The position numbers were made by a program, and so were the translations under genes. A DNA stretch of 64,000 nt from Eledone cirrhosa (Eukaryota), in NCBI GenBank assembly GCA_964016885.1, contig OZ024742.1:115630001-115694000 (forward strand), read 5' to 3'. Position 1 is the stretch's first letter, and each line of letters opens with the position of its first letter. Below, one piece after another: positions 12,796-63,875 of the stretch. The notes beneath the pieces were generated by a model. That model was not told the origin of the DNA. It worked only from the letters and a program-made list of their open reading frames with translations, and did not search any database.

Positions 12796-12933
<138 letters not shown>

Positions 12934-12943
12934 CGTTGTTACA

Positions 12944-15900: not shown

Positions 15901-16216
15901 GACGAACATAAATAAAATAACAAACAGGTAAAGACCCCCCAAAATAAGCATAAGTTTCATTGTAATGTAATATTGGAATGGCCGACTTAGTTTTTTTGTT
16001 TGTCTGCCTGTTTGTTTGTTTTTCTTTTCTTTTTTCTTTTCTCTACGTTCTTCGTTGCTGCTGTGCTGTTTTGATTTTGATTTTTGATTTTTTTGATATT
16101 TTGACCGGGTCATCAAATCAGTCTATTTATATATGTTGATGCCTTCCTCACTTAGTGGGAATACTACGATACCTCTGTCTTAGCAGGAGGTAGTGGGAGA
16201 CAATAGCGGCGGTAGC
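12944..16216 (-). mobile_element. R4/Dong-like retrotransposon, near full-length with internal RT deletions
   Basis: N-terminus RTNWTKELNRTVMQCY..GYRKRM (ATG at 15739), RT pieces KSPGPHGV and FQGDSL.PLLF, CCHC knuckle, RLE motif RPDMVV..DVACP. Deletions at ~14035 and ~14437 relative to the 59501-63875 copy. (ATT)n on both sides. Confidence 0.9.
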
Positions 16217-18626: not shown

Positions 18627-18660
18627 GTGGTTTTTCCCATTTTTTCCACTCTATTTCAAC

Positions 18661-21600: not shown

Positions 21601-22060
21601 TTCGGATAAACTCTACAGGCATGGAGTTACCGTCAGCCGGGCATGTCCGAGATGCGCGCAGGGCGACGAAACCGTCCTGCACGCACTCGTCCAGTGTCCG
21701 AGCATTGCTGACTTGTGTGTTTATGTCGAACACCTGGTGTCAAAATTAGGACTGATCCAGCTATCAGCTGAGTCCATCGTGAGGATTGCCCCGCCCTCTT
21801 TCTGTAGCCGGGAAGGGCAGGCAATTTTTATCTGTCTGGTGGCCATGGCGAAAGAGATAGTATGGTGGACACGTTTGAAAGGGCTGAAGACGAGCACTTC
21901 CTTCTTCGGTGATGCCCTGATTAACTTTTTCAAATTTCATTTGAAAAGGAAAATCAGGGTAGAGAGGGGAGTACTCTCTTCCCAGCATTTTGTTGATAGA
22001 TGGGTGAGAGAAGCAAGTATGGCCCGAGTGAATGGGCCTACTCTGAGTATGTGTCTGTAA
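18661..22060 (+). pseudogene. Tx1-like ORF2: APE endonuclease, RT and C-terminal CCHC, frameshifted
   Basis: MTSLRIGSKNAHGL, AISETR, VYAP, VGDWN, SYLDRVF, YTDYK (APE); KSPSLDGLPYE, FRPVTLLN, QGCPLS, AYADDV (RT); CPRCAQGDETVLHALVQC. Confidence 0.9.
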
Positions 22061-22304
22061 ATTAAAGGTGGAAAACTGGGAGAGGGCACTTGCCCTGGTG
22101 GTCAGGGTCACTATGGTCTTTTAATGGGCTTTCTCCACAAATGTTCCTCAGAAGTCTCCCCCCTATTGGGGAATTTTTGTTTGTTATTTTATTATATCCT
22201 CTGGTTTTTTTTACACGCAGAAATGCCCATTTGTACCGTCCTGTATTGTCCTTTACTGTCCGTAATGTCTACTTTATGTAAACCCTTGTGGTTAATAAAG
22301 AAAA

Positions 22305-22365
<61 letters not shown>

Positions 22366-43472: not shown

Positions 43473-43867
43473 GTGTATAAGAGTAAGATAGTGTATCTGC
43501 GTCTGAGTGTAATGTTTCTGTATATTGGATAAAGGAAAAAAAGAGCTTTATGTTAAGTACATAGGTAATATAAACTATATTATTATAAATAAATTCCAAA
43601 CACACGTGCATGCTTCTAGGCTTTTAAAGCATATTCTAGCGTAGTTCATATAGACAGCATATTTGCTAGTGTTGCTTAGCTTTCAGCCTGTAATATAAGC
43701 AACGCTAGCAGATATAACATCTCTAAAACGTATGCTACAGTAGGCTTTGACACATCAGGGGGCATGCAACTGTGTCGAGAATTTATTCTTAATAATATAG
43801 GCATATATATTCATATAAATATATATATATATATATGAATATATAAATATAGTATATTTGGCAATAT

Positions 43868-43966
43868 ACTGTATGCTTAATTAAATACACTGTATGCTTA
43901 ATTAAATATACTGTATGCTTAATTAAATATACTGTATGCTTAATTAAATATGCTGTATGCTTAATT
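43868..43966. repeat. 21-bp tandem repeat (about 5 units) inside a duplicated ~130-180-bp segment
   Basis: Unit actgtatgcttaattaaatat; segment 43830-44010 recurs at 44210-44335. Confidence 0.85.
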
Positions 43967-44024
43967 GCGCTATTATTTTAAAGTAGTGACTATCTCACTT
44001 CTTTTTTCAACAAACAAAGGGAGA

Positions 44025-44070
44025 TAAGCTGACAGATCTGTTTCATACTGTTGGTAATCTTCAGAACTTA
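44025..44070 (-). ncRNA. Minimal type I hammerhead ribozyme
   Basis: Minus strand taagtt-CTGAAGA-ttaccaacagtat-GAAA-cagatctg-TC-agctta; partial inverted copy at 44337-44375. Confidence 0.7.
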
Positions 44071-44398
44071 ACACTCGCCGATGCCTGTTGAAAATTATAG
44101 ATGTTAGTTTATTATAGAATTCCAGTAATAATCAGGAACTGATTATACAGAGCGATTGCCGGTCCAGCAAATATTGAAAATTAGAGTTGGTGCTATGAAA
44201 TAGCGATGTATACATGAATATATAAATATATATATAGTATAATTGGCAATATACTGTATGCTTAATTAAAAATATTTTGAAGACGTTGCGCTATTATTTT
44301 AAACTAGTGACTAAGTCACTTACTTCTTTTTTCAAGGATTACCAACAGTATGAAACAGATCTGTCAGCTTATCTCCTTTTGTTGTAAAACGAAGTAAG

Positions 44399-44492
<94 letters not shown>

Positions 44493-44537
44493 TAAGCAAA
44501 TAATGAACAAACAATTCCTTATATTAAACAAAAAAAG

Positions 44538-44692
44538 TTCACTATTTAACGATCGTTTCTAGGGTATATATGTGTTATAATTGGTATGCATATTTAACAG
44601 ATCTATGTACAAAATTATACAAAATTATACAAATTATCAAGATTAAATATACATACCTAACTCATATATACGCCGTCTTCAGAAATAATGAA
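44538..44692 (-). ncRNA. Type I hammerhead ribozyme with extended stem II (mirror copy)
   Basis: Reverse complement of 54968-55122. Confidence 0.7.
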
Positions 44693-45465
44693 GTATATTT
44701 ATTGATAATAACAACAATTCAAAATATCAGTTCAAAATTGACCAATGAAAACACAAAGGGTTAAAAAGCAGTTTGGTGTGTGTATATACATGTAAAAACC
44801 TTATACATATTTTACAATAATGTGTGTATAATTTGTATGTGCATACTAAAAAGATGGATGCAAATATAAAATTTCAAGGTTAATATCTCTGTAAGCTTAA
44901 TGCGCTGATAAGATACGCAATGATACTTATGGAGTCAAGCATATAAATATATTTTTTTCATACTCACACATATCAGTATAATCACACATACATGTGCGTA
45001 TATATATAAATATACACATAACCACGAACACACAAACACACACACTCCCCCACTCACATTTATATATGTGGATATAAAATCATAAGCAAAAAGAAATTAA
45101 GTCACTCACATAAAAACACTGGTACACACATTTCAAGATCAAGATACAGAAATTAGGTGGGAGGGGGGGGGGGGGAGGGGTCAGTATTAGATTGTCAGAC
45201 CAGACAGCCTAATATAAATGTATCTATAAATTAAGAAAAATAAAAAAATAAAAACAATAAAATATAGTACATATAATATAATGTACATACGCATACAGAT
45301 ATACATACACATACATACATTTACGCGCACATAGAGATATCTACACATACATACATACACACATACCTATACTGTCATACACACACATACATTTACATGA
45401 ACATACACATACACATATAAAAAGATATAAATACACACACACACACGCGCAACACATACACACAT

Positions 45466-45512
<47 letters not shown>

Positions 45513-45624
45513 TATACACACACACACAGACTCATATATATATACATACACATACATACACATATACAAACATATATATCCCCACACTCATACCACCATA
45601 AAAACACATACAAACACCCAGATG

Positions 45625-45659
<35 letters not shown>

Positions 45660-45872
45660 ACATACACACACGTACACATATATGTATATATACATACATA
45701 TATACACACATACACATATATATATACACACACACATAAAATACAGACATGCACATATATATATATATATATATATATATTTCATTACTCTTATATATAC
45801 ACATAGTATATATACATACACAACCTCACTTATACACATATACACATAAGTTATATTACAATAATAATAAAG

Positions 45873-45927
<55 letters not shown>

Positions 45928-46048
45928 TATACATACACATATATACATACACATACATACATACACATACATACATACACCTAAATATATACATATATAA
46001 ATACACATATACGAATAAAGACATATATTCACACATAGACACCTATAT

Positions 46049-46084
<36 letters not shown>

Positions 46085-47909
46085 ATATACACACACATAC
46101 TCATATATACACATATATATATATACACACATACACACACACACACACACACAGACACACATACACACTCACATATATATATATATATATATGTGTATGT
46201 GAGTGTGCGCAAATACATATATATATACACACACACATACAAACACACACAAACACATACATAAGCATACGTGCACACACACACACATATATCACATAGA
46301 CACTAAGATAAACATATAAATAGAGAGACATACAAATATATACAGAACCCATATACACATACATACAAACACGCATATACATATATATACATATATACAC
46401 ATATATATATTCCTATATACAAGCATACACATACACACACATATATACATATACATACACATATACATACCACACATTCACATACACATACATATATAAT
46501 ATACATATATATACATATATATACGTACATATGTATGTACAATCATATATACACACTCAATCTTACATTCATATTTACATGCTCATATATATATTATTAT
46601 ATTTAGAAATAAATACCAAAACCTATATAGACACTCATCTACACATATATTCATACATATACGCTTACAAAAACAGATGATAATAGTATGGGGGAAAGGG
46701 GGGGTTTGGAGAAGGGGATCAAAGTAAATATATTTTTCAAGAAACATATAATATTTTCCATATCTTAATTCAATGTATGTTCTTACATATTTTCAGTGCT
46801 AGGAAATACGAAATCTATGCATCACAAAATAAAAAAGTATACCATTAATCATATGTTAACTAAACCAAAGATAGTCAACATATTGATTTCCAAGGTGTAA
46901 ATTAGTTAGGTTTATAATATTTGAAGCAGAATTATGAAGTCAAACAGTAGTAGATTATTAATTACATTATAACTAAATTAAAGTTAATAACGTTATGGTA
47001 TCAATATTAGGAGATGAATTTAGTACTAGGGAAAAGAAACCCAAATAAAAATAAAATAAAGTATTACATCGGTAGTAGCATATAAATTATATGTTAACTA
47101 AATTAAAAATTATATATTTATTTCAATAGTATACGTTAATTAGTATATGTTAATTAGGTATACAATACATAAAGCAGATATTGTATTTCATCAATAGCAT
47201 AATATAATTATATGCAAATAAAAATCAAAATTAATACGCATACATATACATATATATACACATACACATATATATACATATACATACACATATATATATA
47301 TATATATATACATATATATATACATACATACATATATAGTCACATAAATATACATACAGATACACATACAACACACACATATACATATACATATAGATAT
47401 ACATATCTTTTTCAAAAAATTTGCACAGAATATATTAACTAGGTATATATCCAAAACACCTCCCATTCTATGATTACATGACATTCTGCAATTCGTCTGT
47501 ACAAGGATACTAATTTTAAGCAAATTAAAATTAAAGTTTTAGGTTGATTAAAACTAAAACCAAATAATAAATATATTTCCAAAATGTATATTAATTAGGT
47601 CTATAATACTAAAAATTCTTTCTCCGTCATAGGATACATGATATTATTTTGTTATATTTTATCTGTAAAGGAATTATAATAAAAAAAATTATAATAAAAG
47701 GTTAAACTAAATTAAAAAATTATAATAAAAGGTTAAAATAAGTTAAAATTAATCTATAAATTAAATTACTGAATATATATTAGTAATATTTAAAGGTTTT
47801 TCAAAATTTATGATTACATAATATTTTCTCATCTGTAATAAAATATTAATTAAATTAAATTTATAGGTTAACTAACATTTAAATTAAATTAAATTCTAGA
47901 ATAATGTTA

Positions 47910-49850
47910 TTAATTAGGTTTATAATATTTAAATGTTTTTTTTAGTTTATGATTACACGATATAATTAATTCCTGTCTTTTATTTAATAAGATATCCCTA
48001 GACTTCATTATTTCAAATAGTTCTTGGGAACATAATCTACATTCCTTTCTATTATTTTGATAAGGGGTGGCTCTTTTGAGCACACTCCAGGTCAAATCAT
48101 ATTTTATATTTTTATTTTTATAACTATTGATTTTTTCTGCTAGAGATGTTGTATTAGCCAGTGCGGCATTTTTAAAGCTATGTTTGTGGGTATTATACCT
48201 TGTCTTAAAATTGTTAGAGGTAGCTCCTATATATGAGCAAATAGAATCTTTAGTTTTAACATTACATTTATAGACTATGTTGTTAACAAGACAATTCCCT
48301 TTTAATGGGCAGTTTGTTTTGTTTCTACAGTTACATCCTTTCGTTAATTCTGTATTTGAGGAGATATTATTGTTAATTTGATGTACTGGTGGTATACTTA
48401 TGGTTTTCTTACATTTATATGCATTATATGCACTTATATTTTGTTTTATGTTATTTGTTGTAGAGTATGAGAATTTAACTGTAGACCTATTTAAGATTTG
48501 ATGGTATTTGTGGTTTGGCGGGAAGTTTTTCTCAAGGATATAAAAAAATTTTTTAGCAATATTATCCTTAACTTGTAAATTAAAAGGAGCATTATACCAA
48601 GTAACTCGTCTATTACGGTTTCTATGTTGTTTATTATTTTTATTATTTTTATATGTTGTATCATGATTTTTACTAGGAGGAATAATGTTAATGATCTCAC
48701 CACCACTATTTTTAGTTATATTTGTAGATTTAGGTGTTTTATCTTTTTTATTAGGAGTTTTATTATTAATATTTATTATAGTCGTATGATGAGTAGTTTT
48801 TTGAGGGTTACTATACTTTATATTAGAAGATTTAGTATTTTGGGGTATACTGTGGGTGGCATTTAGGTGTGTACTTTTCATTTGGTGTTTGTTGGTAATA
48901 TTATGCTGTATGCTTTCAGTATTTTTAGTAGAAGGTATATACTCTAATCTATTTTTGTGGCCACTTCTATCTAGAGCTTCATTATAAAAGGTCGCATTTT
49001 TATCAAATACATCTTGGTTAGAAGAAAGGTTAGAAATTCTAAGTGATATATTATATGCAAGGTTTTTAAGGATAGATTTAGGGTGATTAGATTGTGAGTG
49101 TATGTAATGTAAGTTTTGGTTAGGTTTATGGTAAGGTTGGTATATACCCGTAGCTAAATCTAAAGTTATATCTAGGAAATTTACTACTTTACTTGTTTTT
49201 TCAAAAGTAATATTAAGATTATAATAGTCTTTAAGGAAAGTTCTAATATGCTTTTTGTTTTTTTCGATTTCTGAAAGGCTAAGGTTGTTAGAAAGAAGAA
49301 GACAGTCATCACGATATAAACCACCTTTGAGGTGGGGAAAAGAGGCATTTATGTTGAAAAGGAGAAAGAGGCCAACAAGATCAGTAATTTGGGCAGAATC
49401 GCTTGAACCCATAGTAATATCAAAAAGATTACTATAAGTGTTTCTGGTCCAGTATTCATTCTGAAATTCAATAAGTGTTTGTCTAGCATGTGTAATAATG
49501 TTAATGTCATCCGAAGTTAAATTAGATCTATTTTTAGCAAATATTAATGCTTTGTTCAGGAGTATGGGTGATATAGAAGAATAGTAATTATCTATATCAA
49601 ACTGTAGGAAAGAAGCAGAAGATTTACACCTAATATTTTTAAACCAATTAATTACCTGGGAGGTGTTTTCCCAGAGTGGTAAAATAACGTATTTTCTTAT
49701 TTGTGGGATGACTCTATCTAAAATTTTTTTGCTAATTATTCCAATATCTGATTTGGAGGGACATATAAGTCTAATAGAAGGATTAGAGTTAAAGTTAGAT
49801 TTGTGATCTTTCAGGTTGAAGTGTGTCCACACTTCAACCTGAAAGATCAC
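47910..49850 (-). CDS. PLE RT + GIY-YIG endonuclease, 5'-truncated, uninterrupted (mirror copy)
   Basis: Translation identical to 49803-51743 except the two residues at the loop. Confidence 0.85.
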   Translation of the reverse strand: MIFQVEVWTHFNLKDHKSNFNSNPSIRLICPSKSDIGIISKKILDRVIPQIRKYVILPLWENTSQVINWFKNIRCKSSASFLQFDIDNYYSSISPILLNKALIFAKNRSNLTSDDINIITHARQTLIEFQNEYWTRNTYSNLFDITMGSSDSAQITDLVGLFLLFNINASFPHLKGGLYRDDCLLLSNNLSLSEIEKNKKHIRTFLKDYYNLNITFEKTSKVVNFLDITLDLATGIYQPYHKPNQNLHYIHSQSNHPKSILKNLAYNISLRISNLSSNQDVFDKNATFYNEALDRSGHKNRLEYIPSTKNTESIQHNITNKHQMKSTHLNATHSIPQNTKSSNIKYSNPQKTTHHTTIININNKTPNKKDKTPKSTNITKNSGGEIINIIPPSKNHDTTYKNNKNNKQHRNRNRRVTWYNAPFNLQVKDNIAKKFFYILEKNFPPNHKYHQILNRSTVKFSYSTTNNIKQNISAYNAYKCKKTISIPPVHQINNNISSNTELTKGCNCRNKTNCPLKGNCLVNNIVYKCNVKTKDSICSYIGATSNNFKTRYNTHKHSFKNAALANTTSLAEKINSYKNKNIKYDLTWSVLKRATPYQNNRKECRLCSQELFEIMKSRDILLNKRQELIISCNHKLKKTFKYYKPN

Positions 49851-51743
49851 AAATCTAACTTTAACTCTAATCCTTCTATTAGACTTATATGTCCCTCCAA
49901 ATCAGATATTGGAATAATTAGCAAAAAAATTTTAGATAGAGTCATCCCACAAATAAGAAAATACGTTATTTTACCACTCTGGGAAAACACCTCCCAGGTA
50001 ATTAATTGGTTTAAAAATATTAGGTGTAAATCTTCTGCTTCTTTCCTACAGTTTGATATAGATAATTACTATTCTTCTATATCACCCATACTCCTGAACA
50101 AAGCATTAATATTTGCTAAAAATAGATCTAATTTAACTTCGGATGACATTAACATTATTACACATGCTAGACAAACACTTATTGAATTTCAGAATGAATA
50201 CTGGACCAGAAACACTTATAGTAATCTTTTTGATATTACTATGGGTTCAAGCGATTCTGCCCAAATTACTGATCTTGTTGGCCTCTTTCTCCTTTTCAAC
50301 ATAAATGCCTCTTTTCCCCACCTCAAAGGTGGTTTATATCGTGATGACTGTCTTCTTCTTTCTAACAACCTTAGCCTTTCAGAAATCGAAAAAAACAAAA
50401 AGCATATTAGAACTTTCCTTAAAGACTATTATAATCTTAATATTACTTTTGAAAAAACAAGTAAAGTAGTAAATTTCCTAGATATAACTTTAGATTTAGC
50501 TACGGGTATATACCAACCTTACCATAAACCTAACCAAAACTTACATTACATACACTCACAATCTAATCACCCTAAATCTATCCTTAAAAACCTTGCATAT
50601 AATATATCACTTAGAATTTCTAACCTTTCTTCTAACCAAGATGTATTTGATAAAAATGCGACCTTTTATAATGAAGCTCTAGATAGAAGTGGCCACAAAA
50701 ATAGATTAGAGTATATACCTTCTACTAAAAATACTGAAAGCATACAGCATAATATTACCAACAAACACCAAATGAAAAGTACACACCTAAATGCCACCCA
50801 CAGTATACCCCAAAATACTAAATCTTCTAATATAAAGTATAGTAACCCTCAAAAAACTACTCATCATACGACTATAATAAATATTAATAATAAAACTCCT
50901 AATAAAAAAGATAAAACACCTAAATCTACAAATATAACTAAAAATAGTGGTGGTGAGATCATTAACATTATTCCTCCTAGTAAAAATCATGATACAACAT
51001 ATAAAAATAATAAAAATAATAAACAACATAGAAACCGTAATAGACGAGTTACTTGGTATAATGCTCCTTTTAATTTACAAGTTAAGGATAATATTGCTAA
51101 AAAATTTTTTTATATCCTTGAGAAAAACTTCCCGCCAAACCACAAATACCATCAAATCTTAAATAGGTCTACAGTTAAATTCTCATACTCTACAACAAAT
51201 AACATAAAACAAAATATAAGTGCATATAATGCATATAAATGTAAGAAAACCATAAGTATACCACCAGTACATCAAATTAACAATAATATCTCCTCAAATA
51301 CAGAATTAACGAAAGGATGTAACTGTAGAAACAAAACAAACTGCCCATTAAAAGGGAATTGTCTTGTTAACAACATAGTCTATAAATGTAATGTTAAAAC
51401 TAAAGATTCTATTTGCTCATATATAGGAGCTACCTCTAACAATTTTAAGACAAGGTATAATACCCACAAACATAGCTTTAAAAATGCCGCACTGGCTAAT
51501 ACAACATCTCTAGCAGAAAAAATCAATAGTTATAAAAATAAAAATATAAAATATGATTTGACCTGGAGTGTGCTCAAAAGAGCCACCCCTTATCAAAATA
51601 ATAGAAAGGAATGTAGATTATGTTCCCAAGAACTATTTGAAATAATGAAGTCTAGGGATATCTTATTAAATAAAAGACAGGAATTAATTATATCGTGTAA
51701 TCATAAACTAAAAAAAACATTTAAATATTATAAACCTAATTAA
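49803..51743 (+). CDS. PLE RT + Cys-rich linker + C-terminal GIY-YIG endonuclease (Nematis/Neptune-type architecture), lacks native N-terminus
   Basis: LKDHK..SIRLI, QFDIDNYYSSI, TMGSSDSAQ, LYRDD, VNFLDITL, YHKP..SNHP, WYNAPF, CNCRNKTNCPLKGNC, IVY..YIGAT..KTRYNTH, CRLCSQE, LLNKRQE. The listed start is a GTG created by the fold-back. Confidence 0.88.
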   Translation: MIFQVEVCPHFNLKDHKSNFNSNPSIRLICPSKSDIGIISKKILDRVIPQIRKYVILPLWENTSQVINWFKNIRCKSSASFLQFDIDNYYSSISPILLNKALIFAKNRSNLTSDDINIITHARQTLIEFQNEYWTRNTYSNLFDITMGSSDSAQITDLVGLFLLFNINASFPHLKGGLYRDDCLLLSNNLSLSEIEKNKKHIRTFLKDYYNLNITFEKTSKVVNFLDITLDLATGIYQPYHKPNQNLHYIHSQSNHPKSILKNLAYNISLRISNLSSNQDVFDKNATFYNEALDRSGHKNRLEYIPSTKNTESIQHNITNKHQMKSTHLNATHSIPQNTKSSNIKYSNPQKTTHHTTIININNKTPNKKDKTPKSTNITKNSGGEIINIIPPSKNHDTTYKNNKNNKQHRNRNRRVTWYNAPFNLQVKDNIAKKFFYILEKNFPPNHKYHQILNRSTVKFSYSTTNNIKQNISAYNAYKCKKTISIPPVHQINNNISSNTELTKGCNCRNKTNCPLKGNCLVNNIVYKCNVKTKDSICSYIGATSNNFKTRYNTHKHSFKNAALANTTSLAEKINSYKNKNIKYDLTWSVLKRATPYQNNRKECRLCSQELFEIMKSRDILLNKRQELIISCNHKLKKTFKYYKPN

Positions 51744-53570
51744 TAACATTATTCTAGAATTTAATTTAATTTAAATGTTAGTTAACCTATAAATTTAATT
51801 TAATTAATATTTTATTACAGATGAGAAAATATTATGTAATCATAAATTTTGAAAAACCTTTAAATATTACTAATATATATTCAGTAATTTAATTTATAGA
51901 TTAATTTTAACTTATTTTAACCTTTTATTATAATTTTTTAATTTAGTTTAACCTTTTATTATAATTTTTTTTATTATAATTCCTTTACAGATAAAATATA
52001 ACAAAATAATATCATGTATCCTATGACGGAGAAAGAATTTTTAGTATTATAGACCTAATTAATATACATTTTGGAAATATATTTATTATTTGGTTTTAGT
52101 TTTAATCAACCTAAAACTTTAATTTTAATTTGCTTAAAATTAGTATCCTTGTACAGACGAATTGCAGAATGTCATGTAATCATAGAATGGGAGGTGTTTT
52201 GGATATATACCTAGTTAATATATTCTGTGCAAATTTTTTGAAAAAGATATGTATATCTATATGTATATGTATATGTGTGTGTTGTATGTGTATCTGTATG
52301 TATATTTATGTGACTATATATGTATGTATGTATATATATATGTATATATATATATATATATATGTGTATGTATATGTATATATATGTGTATGTGTATATA
52401 TATGTATATGTATGCGTATTAATTTTGATTTTTATTTGCATATAATTATATTATGCTATTGATGAAATACAATATCTGCTTTATGTATTGTATACCTAAT
52501 TAACATATACTAATTAACGTATACTATTGAAATAAATATATAATTTTTAATTTAGTTAACATATAATTTATATGCTACTACCGATGTAATACTTTATTTT
52601 ATTTTTATTTGGGTTTCTTTTCCCTAGTACTAAATTCATCTCCTAATATTGATACCATAACGTTATTAACTTTAATTTAGTTATAATGTAATTAATAATC
52701 TACTACTGTTTGACTTCATAATTCTGCTTCAAATATTATAAACCTAACTAATTTACACCTTGGAAATCAATATGTTGACTATCTTTGGTTTAGTTAACAT
52801 ATGATTAATGGTATACTTTTTTATTTTGTGATGCATAGATTTCGTATTTCCTAGCACTGAAAATATGTAAGAACATACATTGAATTAAGATATGGAAAAT
52901 ATTATATGTTTCTTGAAAAATATATTTACTTTGATCCCCTTCTCCAAACCCCCCCTTTCCCCCATACTATTATCATCTGTTTTTGTAAGCGTATATGTAT
53001 GAATATATGTGTAGATGAGTGTCTATATAGGTTTTGGTATTTATTTCTAAATATAATAATATATATATGAGCATGTAAATATGAATGTAAGATTGAGTGT
53101 GTATATATGATTGTACATACATATGTACGTATATATATGTATATATATGTATATTATATATGTATGTGTATGTGAATGTGTGGTATGTATATGTGTATGT
53201 ATATGTATATATGTGTGTGTATGTGTATGCTTGTATATAGGAATATATATATGTGTATATATGTATATATATGTATATGCGTGTTTGTATGTATGTGTAT
53301 ATGGGTTCTGTATATATTTGTATGTCTCTCTATTTATATGTTTATCTTAGTGTCTATGTGATATATGTGTGTGTGTGTGCACGTATGCTTATGTATGTGT
53401 TTGTGTGTGTTTGTATGTGTGTGTGTATATATATATATGTATTTGCGCACACTCACATACACATATATATATATATATATATGTGAGTGTTTATGTGTGT
53501 CTGTGTGTGTGTGTGTGTGTGTATGTGTGTATATATATATATGTGTATATATGAGTATGTGTGTGTATAT

Positions 53571-53606
<36 letters not shown>

Positions 53607-53727
53607 ATATAGGTGTCTATGTGTGAATATATGTCTTTATTCGTATATGTGTATTTATATATGTATATATTTAGGTGTATGTATGTATGTGTATGTATGT
53701 ATGTGTATGTATATATGTGTATGTATA

Positions 53728-53782
<55 letters not shown>

Positions 53783-53995
53783 CTTTATTATTATTGTAAT
53801 ATAACTTATGTGTATATGTGTATAAGTGAGGTTGTGTATGTATATATACTATGTGTATATATAAGAGTAATGAAATATATATATATATATATATATAAAT
53901 GTGCATGTCTGTATTTTATGTGTGTGTGTATATATATATGTGTATGTGTGTATATATGTATGTATATATACATATATGTGTACGTGTGTGTATGT

Positions 53996-54032
<37 letters not shown>

Positions 54033-54144
54033 CATCTGGGTGTTTGTATGTGTTTTTATGGTGGTATGAGTGTGGGGATATATATGTTTGTATATGTGTA
54101 TGTATGTGTATGTATATATATATGAGTCTGTGTGTGTGTGTATA

Positions 54145-54189
<45 letters not shown>

Positions 54190-54967
54190 ATGTGTGTATG
54201 TGTTGCGCGTGTGTGTGTGTGTATTTATATCTTTTTATATGTGTATGTGTATGTTCATGTAAATGTATGTGTGTGTATGACAGTATAGGTATGTGTGTAT
54301 GTATGTATGTGTAGATATCTCTATGTGCGCGTAAATGTATGTATGTGTATGTATATCTGTATGCGTATGTACATTATATTATATGTACTATATTTTATTG
54401 TTTTTATTTTTTTATTTTTCTTAATTTATAGATACATTTATATTAGGCTGTCTGGTCTGACAATCTAATACTGACCCCTCCCCCCCCCCCCCCCCCCTCC
54501 CACCTAATTTCTGTATCTTGATCTTGAAATGTGTGTACCAGTGTTTTTATGTGAGTGACTTAATTTCTTTTTGCTTATGATTTTATATCCACATATATAA
54601 ATGTGAGTGGGGGAGTGTGTGTGTTTGTGTGTTCGTGGTTATGTGTATATTTATATATATACGCACATGTATGTGTGATTATACTGATATGTGTGAGTAT
54701 GAAAAAAATATATTTATATGCTTGACTCCATAAGTATCATTGCGTATCTTATCAGCGCATTAAGCTTACAGAGATATTAACCTTGAAATTTTATATTTGC
54801 ATCCATCTTTTTAGTATGCACATACAAATTATACACACATTATTGTAAAATATGTGTAAGGTTTTTACATGTATATACACACACCAAACTGCTTTTTAAC
54901 CCTTTGTGTTTTCATTGGTCAATTTTGAACTGATATTTTGAATTGTTGTTATTATCAATAAATATAC

Positions 54968-55122
54968 TTCATTATTTCTGAAGACGGCGTATATATGAGT
55001 TAGGTATGTATATTTAATCTTGATAATTTGTATAATTTTGTATAATTTTGTACATAGATCTGTTAAATATGCATACCAATTATAACACATATATACCCTA
55101 GAAACGATCGTTAAATAGTGAA
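54968..55122 (+). ncRNA. Type I hammerhead ribozyme with ~115-nt stem II in the PLE 3' region
   Basis: Stem I ttcattattt/aaatagtgaa; CTGAAGA at 54978-54984; stem II helices gtatatatg/catatatac and ggtatgtatatttaa/ttaaatatgcatacc; GAAA at 55101-55104; palindromic cgatcg; GUU site. Confidence 0.72.
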
Positions 55123-55306
55123 CTTTTTTTGTTTAATATAAGGAATTGTTTGTTCATTATTTGCTTAATATTTTATCTTGACTCTGTATACCGTTTATCT
55201 TTCACCGAAATTGGATTTTCATTTATCTCTTCTTTCCATGATATCCGGAATACATTGAGTTCTTCATACGGATTGGACACTAACGTAAACTCTTGGTAGA
55301 TTTATC

Positions 55307-55348
<42 letters not shown>

Positions 55349-55492
55349 CATTAGTTAAGCAAAACAAGACCAAAAAATTCACAAGGAAGACGTTATCTAA
55401 AGAGTGTCAACATAGTTGCAGTTTAATGTAAGGAATAAGGAGTGTAATTATAGTTTAATGTAAGGAATAATAATAATAATAATAATAATAAT

Positions 55493-56734
55493 GTTTTCTT
55501 TATTAACCACACGGGTTTACATAAAGTAGACATGAAGGACAGTACAGGACAATACAGGACGGTACAAATGGGCATTTCTGCGTGTAAAAAACAGAGGATG
55601 TAATAAAATAACAAAGAAAAATTCCCCAATAGGGGGAGACTTCCAAGGGACATTTGTGGAGAAAGCCCATTAAAAGACCACAGTGACCCTGACCACCAGG
55701 GCAAGTGATCTCTCCCAGTTTTCCACCTTTAATTTACAGACACATACTCAGAGAAGGCCCATTCATTCGGGCCATACTTGCTTCTCTCACGCATCTTTCA
55801 ATAAAATGCTGGGAAGAGAGCACTTCCCTCTCTACCCTGATTTTCCTTTTCAAAGGAAATTTGAAAAAGTTAATCAGGGCATCACCGAAGAGGTAAGTGC
55901 TCGTTTTCAGCCCTTTCAAACGTGTCCACCAACTATCTCTTTCGCCATGGCCACCAGACAGATAAAAACTGCCTGCCCTTCCCGGCTAAAGGAAGAGGGC
56001 GGGGCAATCCTCACGATGGACTCAGCTGATAGCTGGATTCGTCCTACACGTGACAGCAGGTGTTCGACATAAACCCACAAGTCAGCAATGCTCGGACACT
56101 GGACGAGTGCGTGCAGGACGGTTTAGTCGCCCTGTGCGCATCTCGGACATGCCCGCGTGACGGCACCTCCATGCCTGTAGAGTTTATCCCGAACTGGCAA
56201 AGCACCCCGGTAGCACTTCCAGGCCAGGGATTTCTGGAAGTTGTCCATAGGCCCCGGCCCGAAAGTCCTTCCGAAGAGATTGGCTAGTTGATTTTCGTCG
56301 ACGCCTAGAGTTTCTCCAAGTACTTTGTCGCTCTTACCCTCCACTAATCCCCTATAGAACGCCAAGGTGGAGTTTCCATCGATCACATTACCCGATTGGT
56401 CGAGGGCTGTGAGCGCCTGAAGACATTCCAGTCTCCAAGCGCTCCCTCTCGACTTCGCTTGACCCAGGACTGCAGCTCCGTCAATGAGACGAGCTGGGGA
56501 AAGACGTGTCTAGCAAACGGCGACCACACCTGATCACCGTCGAAGGAGAGGTCGAGATGTAGCCTGAGCGCGTGTCTGCGCATCATCACCCACGGCATGC
56601 CCAGCTCTCCAAGTAGCGGGAATTGACAGCAGATGGACCGCCTGACTATCGGTTTGCGTCCCTTCCACAATAACCGAAAGAGCAAACACTCCAGCGCAGT
56701 CAGGCGGGTCTTAGGACAAGGTACGACGGTCAGG
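55493..56734 (-). mobile_element. 5'-truncated Tx1-like copy flanked by (AAT)n
   Basis: High similarity to 21063-22305; (AAT)n at 55466-55492 and 56735-56755. Confidence 0.9.
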
Positions 56735-56754
56735 AATAATAATAATAATAATAA

Positions 56755-59284
56755 TGTCCGTTTACGATTGTTTCGCTACTTCATATAATCTTTCTGGATC
56801 AATTGATTATAGATCATTATTGATATGGTTCAGATGAAGATAAGTAACTTAGGTAATATAATGGAGAACTCATCTATTAGGCTTATAAGTCCAACCACAT
56901 CTGACTTGGGTCGTATCAGCAAGAATATTCTAAATAGGATCATCCCTGGCCTGCGATATGGTATCACCTACAAGATGTGGTCCAACACCGGCCAAGTCAT
57001 TGAAGGTTATCAGATCTAAGATCCAAGGAATCGTTAAGGTTTCTTCAATTTGACATTGACAGCTACTACGCTTCAATAAACCCGGCACTGCTTAACAAAG
57101 CATTAACCCTAGCTGGCACCAACTCTGACATAACTAATAACGAGATTGACATCATACTTATTGTTAGGCAGACTATCATTGAGCTCAACGGCTCATTCAG
57201 GACTAGAAAGGAAAGAACAGACAACTTCGACATCACAATGGGCTCAAGCGACTCTCGCAAATCACCGATTTAGTTGGAATCTATCTATTTCTTAACATCA
57301 TAGCTGAAATCCAACCCTTGCAAGGCGGAATATATAAAGACGACGCCCTATGTGCAGTCCACAATTGCACTAAGCGAGTAACTGACTTGCTCAAAAAAAA
57401 TTACATAGATTTTTTTGAAAATAATGCTCTCTCTATCACTATCGAGCCGAACCATAAGGTAGTAAACTTCCTGAACGTTACCCGAGATCTTAACAACAAC
57501 TTATATTACCCTTATCATAAACCAGGTGAAATACTTACATATATTAGCCCGCACTCTAACCACCCACCGGCAGTCATCAGAGCAGTCATTAAATCTATAT
57601 CTTATAGGATCTCCGTGCTATCCGCAAATGAGGAGATATTTATGAACCACGCCGCATATTACAAGCAGGCCCTTTCTGAATCTGGTTATGAACTGTCCCT
57701 TTACTACATACCTAAATGCCATAACACCGAACTTCACCACAACCATAATAAATTTAACACTAGAACTAGAAATACATTAGCATATAGCCAGATACGCCGG
57801 AATGTTAGCAGTAACAGCACCTATACAGGGAACCATAATGCTGGCAGAGGCCTACTTCACACTCCTAGTAGCAGACTCAGAATCAACCCTAGAATAGGAA
57901 TAAACAATGGGACGACAAATAACAAACACCCAGGTAATAATAACCCTATGAAGGCCCTCGCCAACTCCACTAGAACCCCTAGAAGGAATAGGCGTAGAAA
58001 TATCACCTGGCTTAACCCCCCATTATCATCTAATTAAGCCACTAATATCCCTAAACGCTTCTTCTCTATTCTATCTACCCCCCCCCCCCCACCATAGATA
58101 TTACAAATTCTTTAATAAAAACAACATTAACATCTCATTCCCCACGGCACCTAACCTAACTAGCCACATCGCATCCAGTAACTATCATGAACTAAGAGAG
58201 TATAACTCCCACATCACGGTACCACCACTCCCCCTGAAATACACCACGCCACTACACCAATACTTACTCTGGTAGCATGCCTCCCCCCTCTAATCCTATT
58301 AGCACACACCAACCAAATAGTTTAAACAACCCTAACCTGACTAACCGCAACAGTAATTGCAACTGCCGTTACCCTAATGCATGCCCACTTAATGGACAAT
58401 GCCTTACACCCAATATAGTATATAGGTGCACAGTTAAAACAGCATCACACAATTGCCCCTATATTGTCTCTACCTCGAACCCTTTTAAGATACGCTATAA
58501 CGCGCACTCATTTTCCTTCCGAGACCCTAGCAATAGATGTTCAACATCTCTAGCTAGGCTCATTAAAAACCTTAAATTAACCAACATTGAACATTCACTA
58601 ACATGGGATATCTTGGCTAGATCCCCAGCGTTCAATGGACGAAGACACTGTTGTGATGTCTGTGTTACCGAGGCCTATTACATAACTATATCACTACCAC
58701 AACCTATTAATAATAGAAATGAGATAACTATTAACTGTCAACATCTAAGGGCAAATTCCTTCTACAACAGAATATAATATCGTTATTACATATAGCTAAC
58801 ATCTTACATATTTAACCTAGCTTGGATAATTATAAGTTACCTCCCTACACTGTCTCTCATTTAAGCTCATTAGCACTTCTTAGCTATAAATCACCTATGA
58901 TTTTAAATTCTCAAGGATTTACATCCGTGAAACCCGTCTCTAATTAGTAAGGAAAATGTCCTTAGGTGGACATTTGTTACGCATAGGCAGATCTCGCTTA
59001 ACACAGCCTTGACCGAAGTGTAATGCTTGCTTATAGCTGACAATAGATAGAATCGTGAAATACCAATATGTGGAACATTACATTCATGTAACCATCTGTC
59101 TTAACCTTATATTCCTTGTTCCATTTTGTTTTATCAATATTTTCAATATCTCATTTGAAATTCTGAGAACCGCTCCATTATATTACCTAAGTTACTTATC
59201 TTCATCTGAACCAGATCAATGACGATCTATAATCAATTGACGCAGAAACATTATATGGAGTAGTGAAACAATTGTAAACGGACA
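56755..59284 (+). mobile_element. Second, older PLE family copy with an inverted copy of its 3' end at the 5' junction
   Basis: SIRLISPTTSDLG, QFDIDSYY, ITMGSSDS, IYKDD, VNFLNV, SNHP, WLNPP, CNCRYPNACPLNGQC, IVY..YIV, CDVCVTE, with frameshifts. 56755-56866 mirrors 59173-59284 (9 mismatches in 112 bp by eye). Confidence 0.85.
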
Positions 59285-59296
59285 TTATTATTATTG

Positions 59297-59497
59297 AGGG
59301 TGGTGGATTGGCAGTATCGGTAGAGGGTCGGACGTCATGCTTTCCAGCATAGTTACGTCCCTTTACGATCTGAGTTCAAATCCCGCCGAGGTTGACTTTG
59401 CCTTTCATCCTTACGGGGTCGATAAAATAAAGTACCAGTAATGCACTGGGTAATTGCTGGCCTTGTGCCTAAAGTAGAAACAATTATTATTATTATT
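59297..59497 (+). mobile_element. tRNA-type SINE, full length, (ATT)n tail
   Basis: A-box-like tggcagtatcgg; B-box gagttcaaatcc; ends gtagaaacaattattatt. Confidence 0.85.
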
Positions 59498-59500
59498 GTT

Positions 59501-62500
59501 CTTTGAGTCTCAGTCATTGATGTTAGTTAACTGGAAGGTTTGTTGAAATGAATATCAAGCCACTACCTGCAGCGTCAGATATTCAGGGCGTATCGGATGG
59601 TTCTTGCTGTTCCCAGCAAGCATGCCTTTTGAAGCGTTCCAAAAATCGTGAAGGGGCCAATTTTCTTTAACCATCCCTGGAAACTTTTTGAGATAGTCCC
59701 TAGTGCACCTATGACAATCGGGATCACTTTGACTTCATGGCAGTTCCAAATCCTTTTTACCTCCCAATTTAAGTCCTGGTATCGGTTAATGTTCTCCCTC
59801 TCCTTCTCTTGCACTCTCGTGTCGAATGGGCAGGCCACATCCACAATCAGGCACGATCTTTTTTCTTTGTCCAAAACCCCCAGGTCAGGTCTATTGTGTT
59901 CCAGTTTCTTGTCCGTCTGTATCCTAAAATCCCACAGCACCTTCACCTGATCGTTTTCTATCACCGCCTCTGGCTTATGCTCATACCACTTCTCAGAATG
60001 TGGTAAATTGTTTACTTTTCATATGTGCCGGTGGTTCACCCTGCTCATCACATCATGTCTCCAGACCTTATAGTGAGTCTTGGCTATGTGTTTACACTCG
60101 GATACAATGTGAGCCACAGTCTCCTCTCTCTTTCCACAGATCCTGCACAGTGGGCTAGCCTCCTCCATGTAAATGTGGTGTTTCAGCCACTTCGTTTTGA
60201 GGGCCTGCTCCTGCGCAGCCATTAACATTCCTTCTGTAGCCTTTTTAAGGTGTCCTCTTTTCAACCAGTTCCATGTCTGTGGATCTCTAAATTCAGTTTT
60301 CTCAAAGATGGTACTATGAAGGGATATTTCCTGAAGGCTGCTCTTTCTCCTTGATGTTATTTCCTCCTTGGACATCCCCTGGCCTATTGTCCCCTCCTTC
60401 AGTACAGCTCTGAGCATTTGGCTCCTTACTATCAGTCACGTATTTGTGTAGGTTGTTTTTCTCCATCTGAACACAGTCCTCTATGCTGATAAGACCTCTT
60501 CCACCCTCATATCTCCTTAAGTAGAGTCTATCGACATCACTCCTCTTGTGGAACATATTGTAGATAGTCAATAACTTCCTAGTCTTCCTATCCATTTCTT
60601 TTTGTTCAGCAACATTCCATCTCAGAATTCCCGCACTGTACCTAATAATAGACACAGCTCGGGAATTTACTGCACTTATGGCATTCCTACTGTTCAAATA
60701 TGACTTTAATACGCTCCTTACTCTTCGAATGTATTCAGTTCTTATCAATTCCTTCATTTTTTTCTTCTTGATTTCATCAGCCTCCAGAAGGCCCAAATAC
60801 GTGTATTCATCTGCAGAGTCAATTTCTTTTATCATCTCACCTGTTGGTATCTGGATTGCGTTACTTCTGCTCAACTTACCCCCCCTCATCACAATGACTC
60901 CACACTTACTAATACCAAATTGCATACATATATCATTGCTGAAAATACGGACAGTGTCAACAAGCACATCCGACTCCTTCTCACTCTTCCCGAAGAGCTT
61001 AAGGTCGTCGACGAAGAGGAGGTGATTGATAGTAAGCCCTCCCTTTCCCAACCTGTATCCTGCTCTCACTTTTCGCAGTACACTGGTCAGGGGCATCATG
61101 GCAAGGACAAACAACAGAGGGGACAGACTATTTCCTTGGAAGATACCTTTCTTGATCTTCAGGCTTCCCAAGGATTCTCCAGTTGATGTTAACTCTGTTT
61201 CCCAGGACTTCATACTATTGCCCAACAACTGCCTGATGTTATCTGCCACCTTGAAGATCTCCAGGCTTTTGGTGATCCAATAATGATGCACCTTGTCAAA
61301 TGCCTTTTTGTAGTCTATCCATCCCATTGCAAGACCAGTGTGTCTCCTCTTGCAATTCCTCATTACAATCATATCAATAAGTAACTGGTCCTTTGTACCA
61401 CGTGACATCTTTCGGCATCCTTTCTGTTCGTCCGGTAACAAGTTGTTTGTGTGGAGGTGATGGTAGATTTCCTCAGACATAATGCTTGTCAACAGTTTCC
61501 ACATTACGGACAGACATGTGATAGGTCTATAGTTGGTAACATCATTATCATTGATTCGGTCTTTCATTATCAGAACTGTGGTACCTTTTGTCAACCACTC
61601 TGGTACCTCACCTGACATCAAGCAGTCATTGAATATGTTTGTCAGTTTCGGGTGGAGGGATGATATGTTTTTACTCCAATACCTCTGCACACCACCTGGG
61701 CCAGGTGACTTCCAGTTGGTTAATTTTTTGGCCTGCCCCTTAAGGGTTTCAACTGTGATACTCAAATCAGTTTGTTGGCGTGCCTGTTCACTGATCTCCT
61801 TCTGTACTGTCACTGATCTCCTTCTGTACTGTCTAAATCCACACTGCCTGGTCATTATGTTCAACATCCTGCTCCCATATTCCTCTCCAGAATGTTTTAG
61901 TTTGTTCCGCCTCAGGGATAAAGTCGTGGCCTCTTTCTTTCCCTTCAAGCTGTCCAAACAGCATCTTCTGGTTGTTGTCGAACATGCGGTTCTGTCTATA
62001 CTGGCCGATTCTGTTATCGTATCGCCAGATTTTTGCACTTTTTGCTACAATGCGTTGCTTCAGTTCCTCTATGATAATATTTAGCTTTTTCCTCCTAGTT
62101 TTGTACTTTATTTCCAGTCTATATTTAGTGTCTATGTTTTTTAGTGTCCCATTCATTAGGGACTCAAGCTTTCCGATGTCATTTCTCATTTCCCTGATTT
62201 GACCACTCAGTCGTTTCTTCCACGAAGACTCTGCTCTTTCTTGTCTGTTGTTTCCTCTCGCTTTTATAACAAGAAGTTTCCTCACCGTATTTGCTGTTGC
62301 TTTGAGGATATTGTTGCAATGGTGAAGGCTCCTCGCCTCAAGGTATGGGATGACTTTGTTTACCTTAGCTGTTGTTTCTTTTAACTGTTTTATGTCTACA
62401 AATCTTAGGTTCATAGGTATCCCACTATCATTGTTCAATTCATCTACCACTAAGTTTACGATATCTACCAAATCTTGTCCTAGCCCGTCAGCATTCATCT

Positions 62501-63875
62501 CCTCAGTGGCCGTATCTCTGTTCCAGGTATTATTTATCTCAGCATTCAGATCATTGTCTGTTTCGGGTGCTTCCTCCGTTCTCTCGACCTCTTCACCTTC
62601 ATTTCCCACTGGCTCGTTTGCCTGGCATACTCCACCCTCCATCTCCACCCTCCATCTCCAAGCTAATCTCTCTGCCCAGTTCCTCCAGTTCCAGCTCGCT
62701 TATCCACCCATTAGTTCTTATTACTCGAGCCTGCCCGGCCAGACTGTGTGCTTCTAATTTAAATGGACCAATCTCGTTCCAGATGTTATGAATCCTTTTC
62801 CTATAGCCTATCTCCTTTGGGTTACTCTTCAGGTAACATTGCATAACAGTTCTATTCAATTATTTCGTCCAGTTGGTTCTGGTCCCTTTCCTTCTTCTTC
62901 TTCCTCCAACACCAGCAGTATTTGGTTGACAGCCAGGTCCCTGCTGCTGAGCCAGGGAGCACCTGTTGGGTGAGAGTCTGTCACATGACATTCTAGTCTC
63001 CATTTCACCGTTACTCGAACTGTTTAGGTTCGACATTTAAACACTCTTATCGAGGATTGGCGAATGTATGGTTACATAACCACCGGTGAATTACTTGTCT
63101 CCGGTGGTTTCGTCACTCCACGTGACTTGTGTGTGGCATTATCACGCTGTAGACGAACCCAAACAAACAAACAAACAGGCAGAAAACCCCCCCAAAATGA
63201 ATAAGCATAAGTTTCATTGTAATGTAGTGTTTGAACTAGTTTTTCCCTGCCCTTCTCTGTCCGTCCGTTTGTTTTTCTCTTTATTTCCTTTACGTTTTTC
63301 GTTGCTGCTGTGCTGCTTTGATTTTGATTTTTGGGTTTTTTTTTGATTTTGACCGGGTCATCAATTCAGCCTATTTATATATTTTGATGTTTTCCTCTTT
63401 TAGTGGGAATTCTACAATGTAGCAGCGGATAGCGGGAGAGAATAGCGGCGGTAGTGATACTGAGGCAGCGGCGTCGGGGGTGGTGGCGGTGCTGTGCTAG
63501 CAGCAACTAGCAGGAGGTAGTGGTAGGGAATAGCGGCGGTAGCGATAGTGAGCAAGCGGTGGTGGTGATGTGGTCGTATTACTTTTGTAAAACTAAAACT
63601 TGATTTCGATTATTGTTCTTTTTTGTTTTCATTTTTTTTTTTATTTTGATCGGTTCATCATTTCAGTCTATTTATATATTTCGGTGTTTTGCCTCTTTTA
63701 GTGAGAAATCTACAATGTTGCAGGGGGTAGCAGGAGAGAAAAGCGGTGGTAGTGATATTGAGGCAGCAGCGGCGGTGACGGTGCTGTGCTAGCAGCAACT
63801 AGCCGGAGGTAGTGGGAGAGAATAGCGGCGGTAGCGATAGTGAGGCAGCGGTGGTGCTGATGTGGTCGTATTACT
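59501..63875 (-). mobile_element. R4/Dong-like retrotransposon, essentially full-length, frameshifted
   Basis: ORF 62991-59575 in pieces: NRTVMQCY..GYRKR, KSPGPGG, NYRPITCL, EQKGC, WIDYKKAFD, FQGNSLSP, FVDDLKL, CRIC..H..C, RPDL..DVACP. Confidence 0.92.
63318..63875 (-). repeat. Two ~290-bp tandem monomers at the Dong-like 5' end, each with a TATA-like motif
   Basis: 63318-63583 resembles 63600-63875; ctatttatatat on the plus strand (TATAAATAG on the element strand) in each unit and at ~16123-16134. Confidence 0.75.

Follow-up and report, generated by a model that had tools for sequence, protein, structure and literature searches.

A 10.7-kb palindrome of a Hydra-like Penelope-like element and its probable origin by twin priming on one RNA

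The window analysed here, a 64,000-nucleotide stretch of Eledone cirrhosa DNA, carries a near-perfect palindrome of a retrotransposon set in a (TA)n repeat. We propose, with a probability of roughly 0.7, that it is a head-to-head insertion which arose through programmed twin priming on a single RNA, followed by microhomology joining. The main evidence comes from the family: 52 of 53 inverted pairs combine one arm ending at base 6061 of the 6,196-nt unit (u6061) with one ending at u6196, in (TA)n. The inverted layout is already known; we did not find the strict pairing rule in print.

The palindrome and its two arms

The palindrome is confirmed in the assembly as the earlier note had described it. 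Performing self-BLAST, we found a sole inverted match (44484-55176), 99.7% identical over 10,704 columns, with the fold centre GAAGTGTG-TC-CACACTTC and the TC at 49826-49827. The arms, 44484-49825 and 49828-55176, have outer flanks that differ from each other. In unit bases, the tailless arm is u682-6061 on the minus strand (44484..49825), its outer end being the family's fixed upstream end site. The tailed arm is u679-6196 on the plus strand (49825..55310), ends at the fixed downstream site and is 3 nt longer. The head-to-head joint (49825..49827) reads G-T-C, the parent's bases u679-681; the G at 49825 is common to both arms (1-nt microhomology), and the remainder is the apparent 2-nt loop. 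As had been noticed, the left arm directly adjoins (TA)n, while the right arm has ~134 further bases before it. By sequence, the left part of the target (44399..44485) overlaps the arm end by ATA, and its right part is 55311..55345. The further bases are the tail (55177..55310, plus strand), unit bases 6062-6196, which measures 135 nt in the reference copy and occurs in one arm only.

Eight differences separate the arms, in repeat lengths and substitutions as reported before: four substitutions (46164/53491, 45757/53898, 45471/54184 and 44804/54856) and four indels, three of 2 nt in microsatellites and one of 5 nt in a G/C run. Counting from the fold, no difference occurs within 3,598 bp, and at least six variants private to the locus are found in both arms. 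The view that the insertion is very recent, with both arms from one template, is supported.

Both flanks are repeats themselves. The end of an older TA-targeting Penelope-like family lies beyond the right (TA)n; in 3-kb loci, this older family is too interrupted for the pairing of its arms to be read. Searching for an empty site via paralogous flanks, we found the right flank absent from 19 of 19 left-flank relatives, and the left flank was not across (TA)n at any of 14 right-flank loci. A target-site duplication is unreadable inside (TA)n. ARAGORN reported no tRNA.

An assembly or library artefact, in which a fold-back chimeric read was built into the contig, is very improbable. The arms end at two family-specific sites and their flanks differ; in a read chimera, the flank would be mirrored as well. 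The eight differences between the arms also speak against it. Furthermore, the same layout with different joints recurs at 52 loci, and one short-read contig from another sample holds a head-to-head joint (u1287-1264 antisense to about u820 sense). In favour of an artefact, no read or contig across the fold was seen among the matches listed when four read runs were compared with 49770-50330. These runs differ from the studied copy at several bases, and contigs drop rare variants, so the result speaks neither for nor against the locus. No RNA data set was among the matches listed.

The element, its protein and a predicted ribozyme

We mapped 69 loci of this young family, 60 of them fetched without regard to shape. 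By its sequence features, the element appears to be a Hydra-like Penelope-like retrotransposon (PLE). Like other EN+ PLEs, it has a single ORF with RT and GIY-YIG, pseudo-LTR partial tandems (u6196 joined straight to u1 at many loci, e.g. L033, L043 and L076) and an inverted 5′-truncated copy with a tail at one end. The Hydra clade is described in Craig et al. 2021 (PMC8557442). Its motifs (RWK-like, here RWR; DKT, CxCx5C, CxxC and CxH, with a C-terminal GIY-YIG endonuclease) are all present, and the outer ends enter TA repeats at the family loci listed, matching the (TA)n target of the clade. Hydra elements are generally below 3 kb (1.1-3.0 kb in the families listed in PMC8557442). Since our unit measures 6,196 nt, we filed the family as Hydra-like and not as a plain member. 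Membership in Naiad/Chlamys was rejected, as the GIY-YIG domain is C-terminal, not N-terminal.

The earlier reading of the same uninterrupted protein in both arms holds for the frame but not for the whole protein. Both arms carry the same 637-codon open frame (47910..49823, minus strand; 49830..51743, plus strand), residues 177-813, including the stop, of an 813-aa protein. The first 176 of 813 codons are missing from both arms, a start codon is lacking, and no in-frame Met occurs before residue 314; the studied copy is unable to make the full protein. The frame is open from u684 onward in 42 of 46 segments tested, and the reference copy has an 813-aa single ORF with YRDD and IVY..YIG. The 637-aa frame retains YRDD, CxCx5C, IVY..YIG, CxxC and CxH, while RWR and DKT fall in the lost part (motif positions RWR37, DKT115, CNCRNKTNC673, CRLC771 and CNH799). 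Pfam gave no RT or GIY-YIG match on the 637-aa part, only one sub-threshold DUF, so the RT and GIY-YIG call, which bears out the earlier identification, rests on the motifs and 117 homologues. Residues Y694, Y707, G709, R718, H722, E777 and N790 are kept across 40 aligned homologues. Hydra elements have no CCHH motif in the endonuclease. In our protein, two Cys are found inside the core (C696 and C705, with 8 residues between), neither of them conserved among homologues, the consensus at 696 being A.

Downstream of the ORF lies a microsatellite-rich 3′ untranslated region of about 3.2 kb (51744..54967, plus strand), followed by a predicted type I hammerhead ribozyme with a 116-nt stem II (54968..55122, plus strand); its mirror copy, placed by mirror coordinates, is at 44538..44692 (minus strand). 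The predicted cut falls after 55112, which places it 66 nt upstream of one end site and 201 nt upstream of the other. The long-stem fold scores z -5.1, and one compensatory pair is seen in 3 of 24 sequences. A type I hammerhead near the 3′ end is shared with the Hydra clade, but the long stem II is unlike that clade, which has the canonical short form (format compared with File S2 of PMC8557442). The canonical CUGANGA-N5-40-GAAA pattern is absent from either strand. Rfam gave no hammerhead match, only microsatellite-driven miRNA matches below gathering score.

Arm ends, arm lengths and donor haplotypes across the family

The 53 pairs counted are those with both outer ends visible. Their one-of-each pairing gives a binomial p of 6e-15 against 0.5, and it holds for 43 of 44 pairs in the shape-blind batch of 60 loci. 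Locus L088 is the only tailless/tailless (6061/6061) pair. Among single arms, four end at 6061 and eight at 6196. In 47 simple pairs, the tailless arm is longer in 23 and the tailed arm in 19, with ends at most 10 nt apart in five; two pairs, L054 and L126, show no overlap between their arms. The differences in arm length follow a bimodal distribution, with five pairs at 10 nt or less, none at 11-300 nt and 24 above 3 kb. Joints across loci have 0-8 nt of microhomology or short templated inserts.

These data bear on the mechanism put forward earlier, a snap-back in which the cDNA served as template for a copy reaching almost to its own start. In an extended version of it, cDNA primed at u6196 would fold and be copied back, the copy being stopped or cut at u6061 by a protein block or the endonuclease, and asymmetric loci would arise later via one-sided deletion of the palindrome centre. 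However, the tailless arm stops at the fixed, family-wide u6061 also where it cannot copy the tailed arm: where it is the longer one, where there is no overlap, and at the four loci where it stands alone. Because of the 23 longer tailless arms and the two pairs without overlap, simple snap-back fails for the family. It would further require multi-kb one-sided deletions at most loci, and none of 11-300 nt.

Near-perfect folds speak for snap-back. Palindromes of about 10 kb with 0-9-nt centres occur at 5 of the 69 loci. The four besides the studied one measure 9.9-10.9 kb, so the size is not exceptional, contrary to what the earlier note had supposed. Permuting arms across loci, we obtained 0.5 such folds by chance pairing (p 1.5e-5); in the shape-blind batch the count was 3 of 39 against 0.18 expected. 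The excess follows straight from snap-back; under twin priming it requires a stop shared by both cDNAs, or else an RNA with a broken end. The studied fold falls within the family truncation hotspot (u658-695). Against snap-back, it is the tailless arm that ends in the hotspot at L037, L052 and L054, the tailed arm there being much the shorter of the two. At L031, also near-perfect, the tailless arm exceeds the tailed one by 5 nt, a geometry that snap-back of the tailed cDNA could not produce. An RNA structure behind the stop zone was not supported in 70-nt windows over u631-760 (z -0.8 to +1.0 against shuffles). At the studied locus itself snap-back could have acted, since the tailed arm is 3 nt longer with 1-nt microhomology, but the fold would prime from a 1-bp stem with a 2-nt loop. 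By hairpin geometry, this makes a poor primer. Self-priming and endonuclease resolution are also published readings (PMC3846280; PMC8557442). Weighing both sides, we consider snap-back unlikely.

The donor haplotypes of the arms were also compared. Of 5,518 comparisons at polymorphic sites, 76 showed a disagreement between the arms, where random copies would be expected to give 1,382; save at L088, the arms carry one donor haplotype. Clearly different donors are seen at L088 alone, where 731 nt contain 6 mismatches (0-3 in the 43 others measured). Apparent discordance at u5743/5745, L122 and L142 proved to be alignment noise on direct alignment of the 3′ 730 nt; the whole-overlap alignment of L122 is poor (74 mismatches, 61 gaps). 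Arm identity, including the variants private to the studied locus, fits twin priming, snap-back and gene conversion alike. The target ends might also have been primed independently by two RNPs, each bringing an RNA of its own from a shared donor locus. This would explain non-nested arms, plus shared haplotypes if one donor dominates in the cell, and L088 shows that arms of two donors can be joined. Yet it leaves unexplained both the one-of-each pairing and the excess of coincident 5′ ends after permutation, and we regard it as quite improbable. One RNA is preferred over two RNAs of a single donor on the strength of the coincident ends and of one locus, L088.

Twin priming and its relation to known systems

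Under the twin-priming reading, the protein, probably a dimer, would cut both strands of the (TA)n target and start one RT per site. The cut ends would prime on one RNA, one at u6196 and the other 135 nt upstream at u6061, so that the tailed and tailless arms would be the first-strand cDNAs from these respective sites. The leading cDNA would be displaced by the trailing RT, after which the two cDNA 3′ ends may anneal, copy each other and become joined. At the studied locus, both cDNAs would have halted at most 3 nt apart, either within the stop zone u658-695 or at a break in the RNA common to both; the hairpin-like joint with its 2-nt loop would result because both stopped within 3 nt of each other. 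A stricter version, in which insertion always requires two RTs acting asymmetrically on a single RNA, with one subunit always at the upstream site and the other downstream, in convoy, is tentative, and we give it slightly less than even odds.

The inverted, 5′-truncated copy with a tail at one end is indeed canonical for EN+ PLEs, as the earlier note stated (PMC3846280; PMC8557442, whose File S1 lists the Repbase family Penelope-13_HM). Our family shares with it head-to-head arms, partial tandems, a one-armed tail, palindromes at the joint and a microsatellite target. It differs in the tail (135 nt versus 30-40 nt), in arms of 5-6 kb that are not nested and in near-obligate pairing (52/53); these sources describe the canonical tail as optional and appeal to self-priming or endonuclease resolution. 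The PAc Poseidon protein cuts and extends both strands in vitro, and two RT start sites bound its tail, downstream of the hammerhead (Frangieh et al. 2024, PMC11167929). Twin priming fits these data on two start sites, and the AT-rich target and the predicted PAc dimer are further likenesses. Against it, the PAc start sites are alike on both strands, so that the in vitro data do not extend to the strict pairing, and the main text makes no link between these sites and the arms of a single inverted insertion (PMC11167929). LINE-1 offers a parallel in its twin priming with internal duplication: there, a single RNA is primed from both target ends, microcomplementarity joins the cDNAs, extra template switches occur and the 3′-primed cDNA can pass the internal primer (bioRxiv 10.1101/2024.08.27.596794). 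The LINE-1 internal site is a chance complementarity at variable places, whereas ours lies at a single fixed base, 135 nt away from the end, in most insertions, and almost all of the element is duplicated as a result. That here too both target ends primed on the same RNA is suggested by arms that are not nested and by their shared haplotypes.

The origin of PLE inverted arms and the one-sided tail has been called an open question (PMC8557442) or left to 'additional steps' (PMC11167929). What the family offers is a rule that can be counted: each insertion combines the two end types and has a single donor, and the sole exception comes from two donors. The question is thereby reduced to a simple two-site, two-RNA experiment. 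If twin priming is right, the tail rule, the inverted arms and the near-loopless 10-kb palindromes would be one mechanism, and the 135-nt spacing would make the family an easy system for proof. Long palindromes are expected to be unstable, and to give long double-stranded RNA if transcribed; this family keeps placing 10-kb palindromes in an animal genome.

The window palindrome and its element

Comparing the window with itself, we found a single large inverted repeat (44484-55176), whose arms are 99.7% identical. It folds at TC (49826-49827), and its arms are 4 substitutions and 4 small indels apart, the inner 3,598 bp being free of differences. The left arm adjoins (TA)n with nothing in between, whereas about 134 extra bases separate the right arm from its (TA)n. 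The earlier note had described these arms, their fold, loop and differences and the one-sided tail, and our re-analysis bore out all of it. Its uninterrupted protein stood in part: the frame is open and common to both arms, but it is incomplete: of the 813 aa of the protein, either arm codes for residues 177-813, while other copies retain the 5′ region and the first 176 codons. At least 6 variants are common to both arms and absent from every other fetched locus. The insertion is real, recent and not competent to code the full protein. Its layout is already known; the accessible portions of PMC3846280 and PMC8557442 describe the inverted copy, tail and junction palindromes of Penelope-like elements (PLEs).

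As coordinate ruler (u), we chose a natural, full-length copy of 6,196 nt on chromosome C5. Its protein carries RWR, DKT, YRDD, CxCx5C, a C-terminal IVY..YIG, CxxC and CxH, and most of the 117 homologues found have this motif set. The same set marks the Hydra clade in section 11 of PMC8557442, and by its sequence the element is filed as Hydra-like. It shares with that clade, as far as the accessible text goes, the protein motifs and C-terminal endonuclease, but its unit is twice as long as in the Hydra clade families listed there, and the canonical hammerhead was not found by pattern and Rfam searches. On the forward strand, 54968-55122 is predicted to fold as a type I hammerhead whose stem II spans 116 nt. 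The fold scored better than 200/200 shuffles (z -5.1), and the covariation evidence is weak, as 24 closely related sequences yielded one compensatory pair. Unit, tail and predicted hammerhead stem are all unusually long in this family. Short older copies at L088 and L112 have 5′ ends at u5854, within stem I, which at L112 creates a small perfect palindrome.

The surrounding sequence is rich in older elements. A second Hydra-like PLE family is represented by an older, decayed copy with inverted ends at 55346-55470 and 56740-59290; its end likewise adjoins (TA)n, and other elements break up the (AAT)n run inside it. Decayed non-LTR retrotransposon copies of an RVT_1 family occupy 1-1900, 12900-16200 and 59400-63450. 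Another, with an exonuclease-endonuclease-phosphatase domain, lies at 17070-22330, its 3′ part recurring inverted at 55466-56734. The left flank (43840-44400) is a small repeat that contains inverted segments and is abundant, with 2,380 first-look candidates.

Paired ends across the family

Four element searches of the 3.0-Gb assembly, each taking the best 40 of 927-2,839 first-look candidates, gave at least 102 clusters besides the window. We fetched 8 loci first (7 for their inverted look, 1 as ruler) and then 60 chromosomal loci regardless of shape, excluding loci matched solely by the 5′-end query, unplaced contigs and several large tandem arrays. With the window, these 69 regions comprised 53 inverted pairs with both outer ends, 12 single arms and 4 unresolved loci. 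One arm ended at u6061 and the other at u6194-6196 in 52/53 pairs, and in 43/44 of the shape-blind batch. Single arms ended at u6061 (4) or u6196 (8). Arrays of at least three tandem 6.1-kb units, some with inversions, are possible donor loci (C2:170420000-170454000 and C3:372030000-372043000).

Opposite arms disagreed at family-polymorphic sites in 76 of 5,518 comparisons (67 segment pairs), where random copies would be expected to disagree in 1,382; the 76 mostly reflect alignment noise, either at u5743/5745 or within microsatellites. When the last 730 nt were aligned arm against arm, 43 pairs had 0-3 mismatches, L088 had 6, and 3 pairs offered no anchor. The sole exception to the pairing, L088 (7637-15395), has two ends at u6061 and arms differing at 26/2,093 columns. 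Its arms come from two donors, and this single case could be two insertions.

Arm geometry and snap-back

The earlier note had proposed that the cDNA snapped back and was copied on itself. A snapped-back strand copies solely the content of the first cDNA, so the tailed arm must extend 5′ at least as far as the tailless arm. Among 47 pairs, tabulated without L088 and the multi-switch loci L035, L110, L142, L144 and L156, 19 have the longer arm on the tailed side and 23 on the tailless side, and in 5 the two arms stop within 10 nt. The tailed arm of L054 and of L126 consists of the tail alone, so that the arms there have no sequence in common. Simple snap-back therefore fails as the family rule. 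Because of these arm lengths and non-overlapping arms, u6061 behaves as the start site of an independent cDNA, not as a chance stop of copy-back.

Length differences were bimodal (none at 11-300 nt, 24 above 3 kb). The 5 near-perfect palindromes (window, L031, L050, L122, L146; spans 9.9-10.9 kb) compare with 0.5 of 47 expected by permutation (p 1.5e-5), and 3/39 with 0.18 in the shape-blind batch. The excess is real and gives snap-back its strongest argument; with later loss of the palindrome centre, that route is still unlikely. The tailless arm of L031 reaches 5 nt further, and its joint has 2 nt of microhomology; this agrees with annealing of two cDNA ends but not with a tailed cDNA folding back. 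At the window joint the tailed arm is longer by 3 nt and 1 nt is common to both arms, so this locus, taken by itself, fits both snap-back and priming by both cut target ends on one RNA (twin priming).

The window fold falls where the family's 5′ ends pile up. We examined 28 loci first fetched via two queries whose starts lie at or beyond u954. Of 13 truncated arms that bear the query, 6 have their 5′ ends at u658-695 (p 5e-6); the rest of the 28 are full-length or tandem, or show a locus already counted from its mirror side. L031 also joins in this 38-nt zone, which covers 49828-49841 together with the missing sequence immediately upstream. No RNA hairpin was found in it; an RT block, RNA break or internal start may cause the pile-up. 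A second cluster may lie at u911-968.

Probable twin priming on one RNA

We consider programmed twin priming the probable explanation of the family's insertions (roughly 70%). The observations are outer ends that are fixed and paired, arms that are not nested and stem from one donor, joints with short homology, and TA targets. A single RNA would serve both target ends, one priming at u6196 and the other at u6061; the trailing RT would displace the leading cDNA, and the two cDNA 3′ ends would anneal and be filled in. Two RTs halting at the same break or block would yield coincident arm ends. Priming on two separate RNAs is an improbable alternative. In the accessible text of PMC11167929, PAc, the purified Poseidon PLE protein, both cleaves and extends the two target strands, initiates at two internal RNA sites bounding the tail and is a predicted dimer. 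LINE-1 twin priming with internal duplication, as far as described in 10.1101/2024.08.27.596794, works alike, but here the second site would be programmed.

The 56 joint rows comprised 30 overlaps, 9 blunt joints and 17 with inserted letters, some being unaligned tandem sequence and others repeated local copies; the L112 row is a neighbouring older insertion. Joints of 80-100 nt (L064:10919-11021, L074:9889-9969, L112:9009-9100) are built from nearby sequence copied over and over in short pieces, as if by repeated slips on the template. Additional template switches lie between the two arms in L035, L110, L144 and L156, resembling the switching variants reported for L1.

A fold-back read chimera is very improbable, as its two flanks would be mirror images and its arms could not each have a family-specific end of their own. 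In a public short-read run (X3), moreover, a contig carries a head-to-head joint, its loose end (antisense u1287-1264, 24/28 letters) joined to sense near u820. Among the pieces listed from public runs, none crosses the window fold, which is uninformative for a private insertion.

The literature searched yielded no statement of twin priming or of a one-of-each end rule for PLEs. The main value of this analysis is the counted pairing rule, which puts the PLE insertion mechanism within direct testing.
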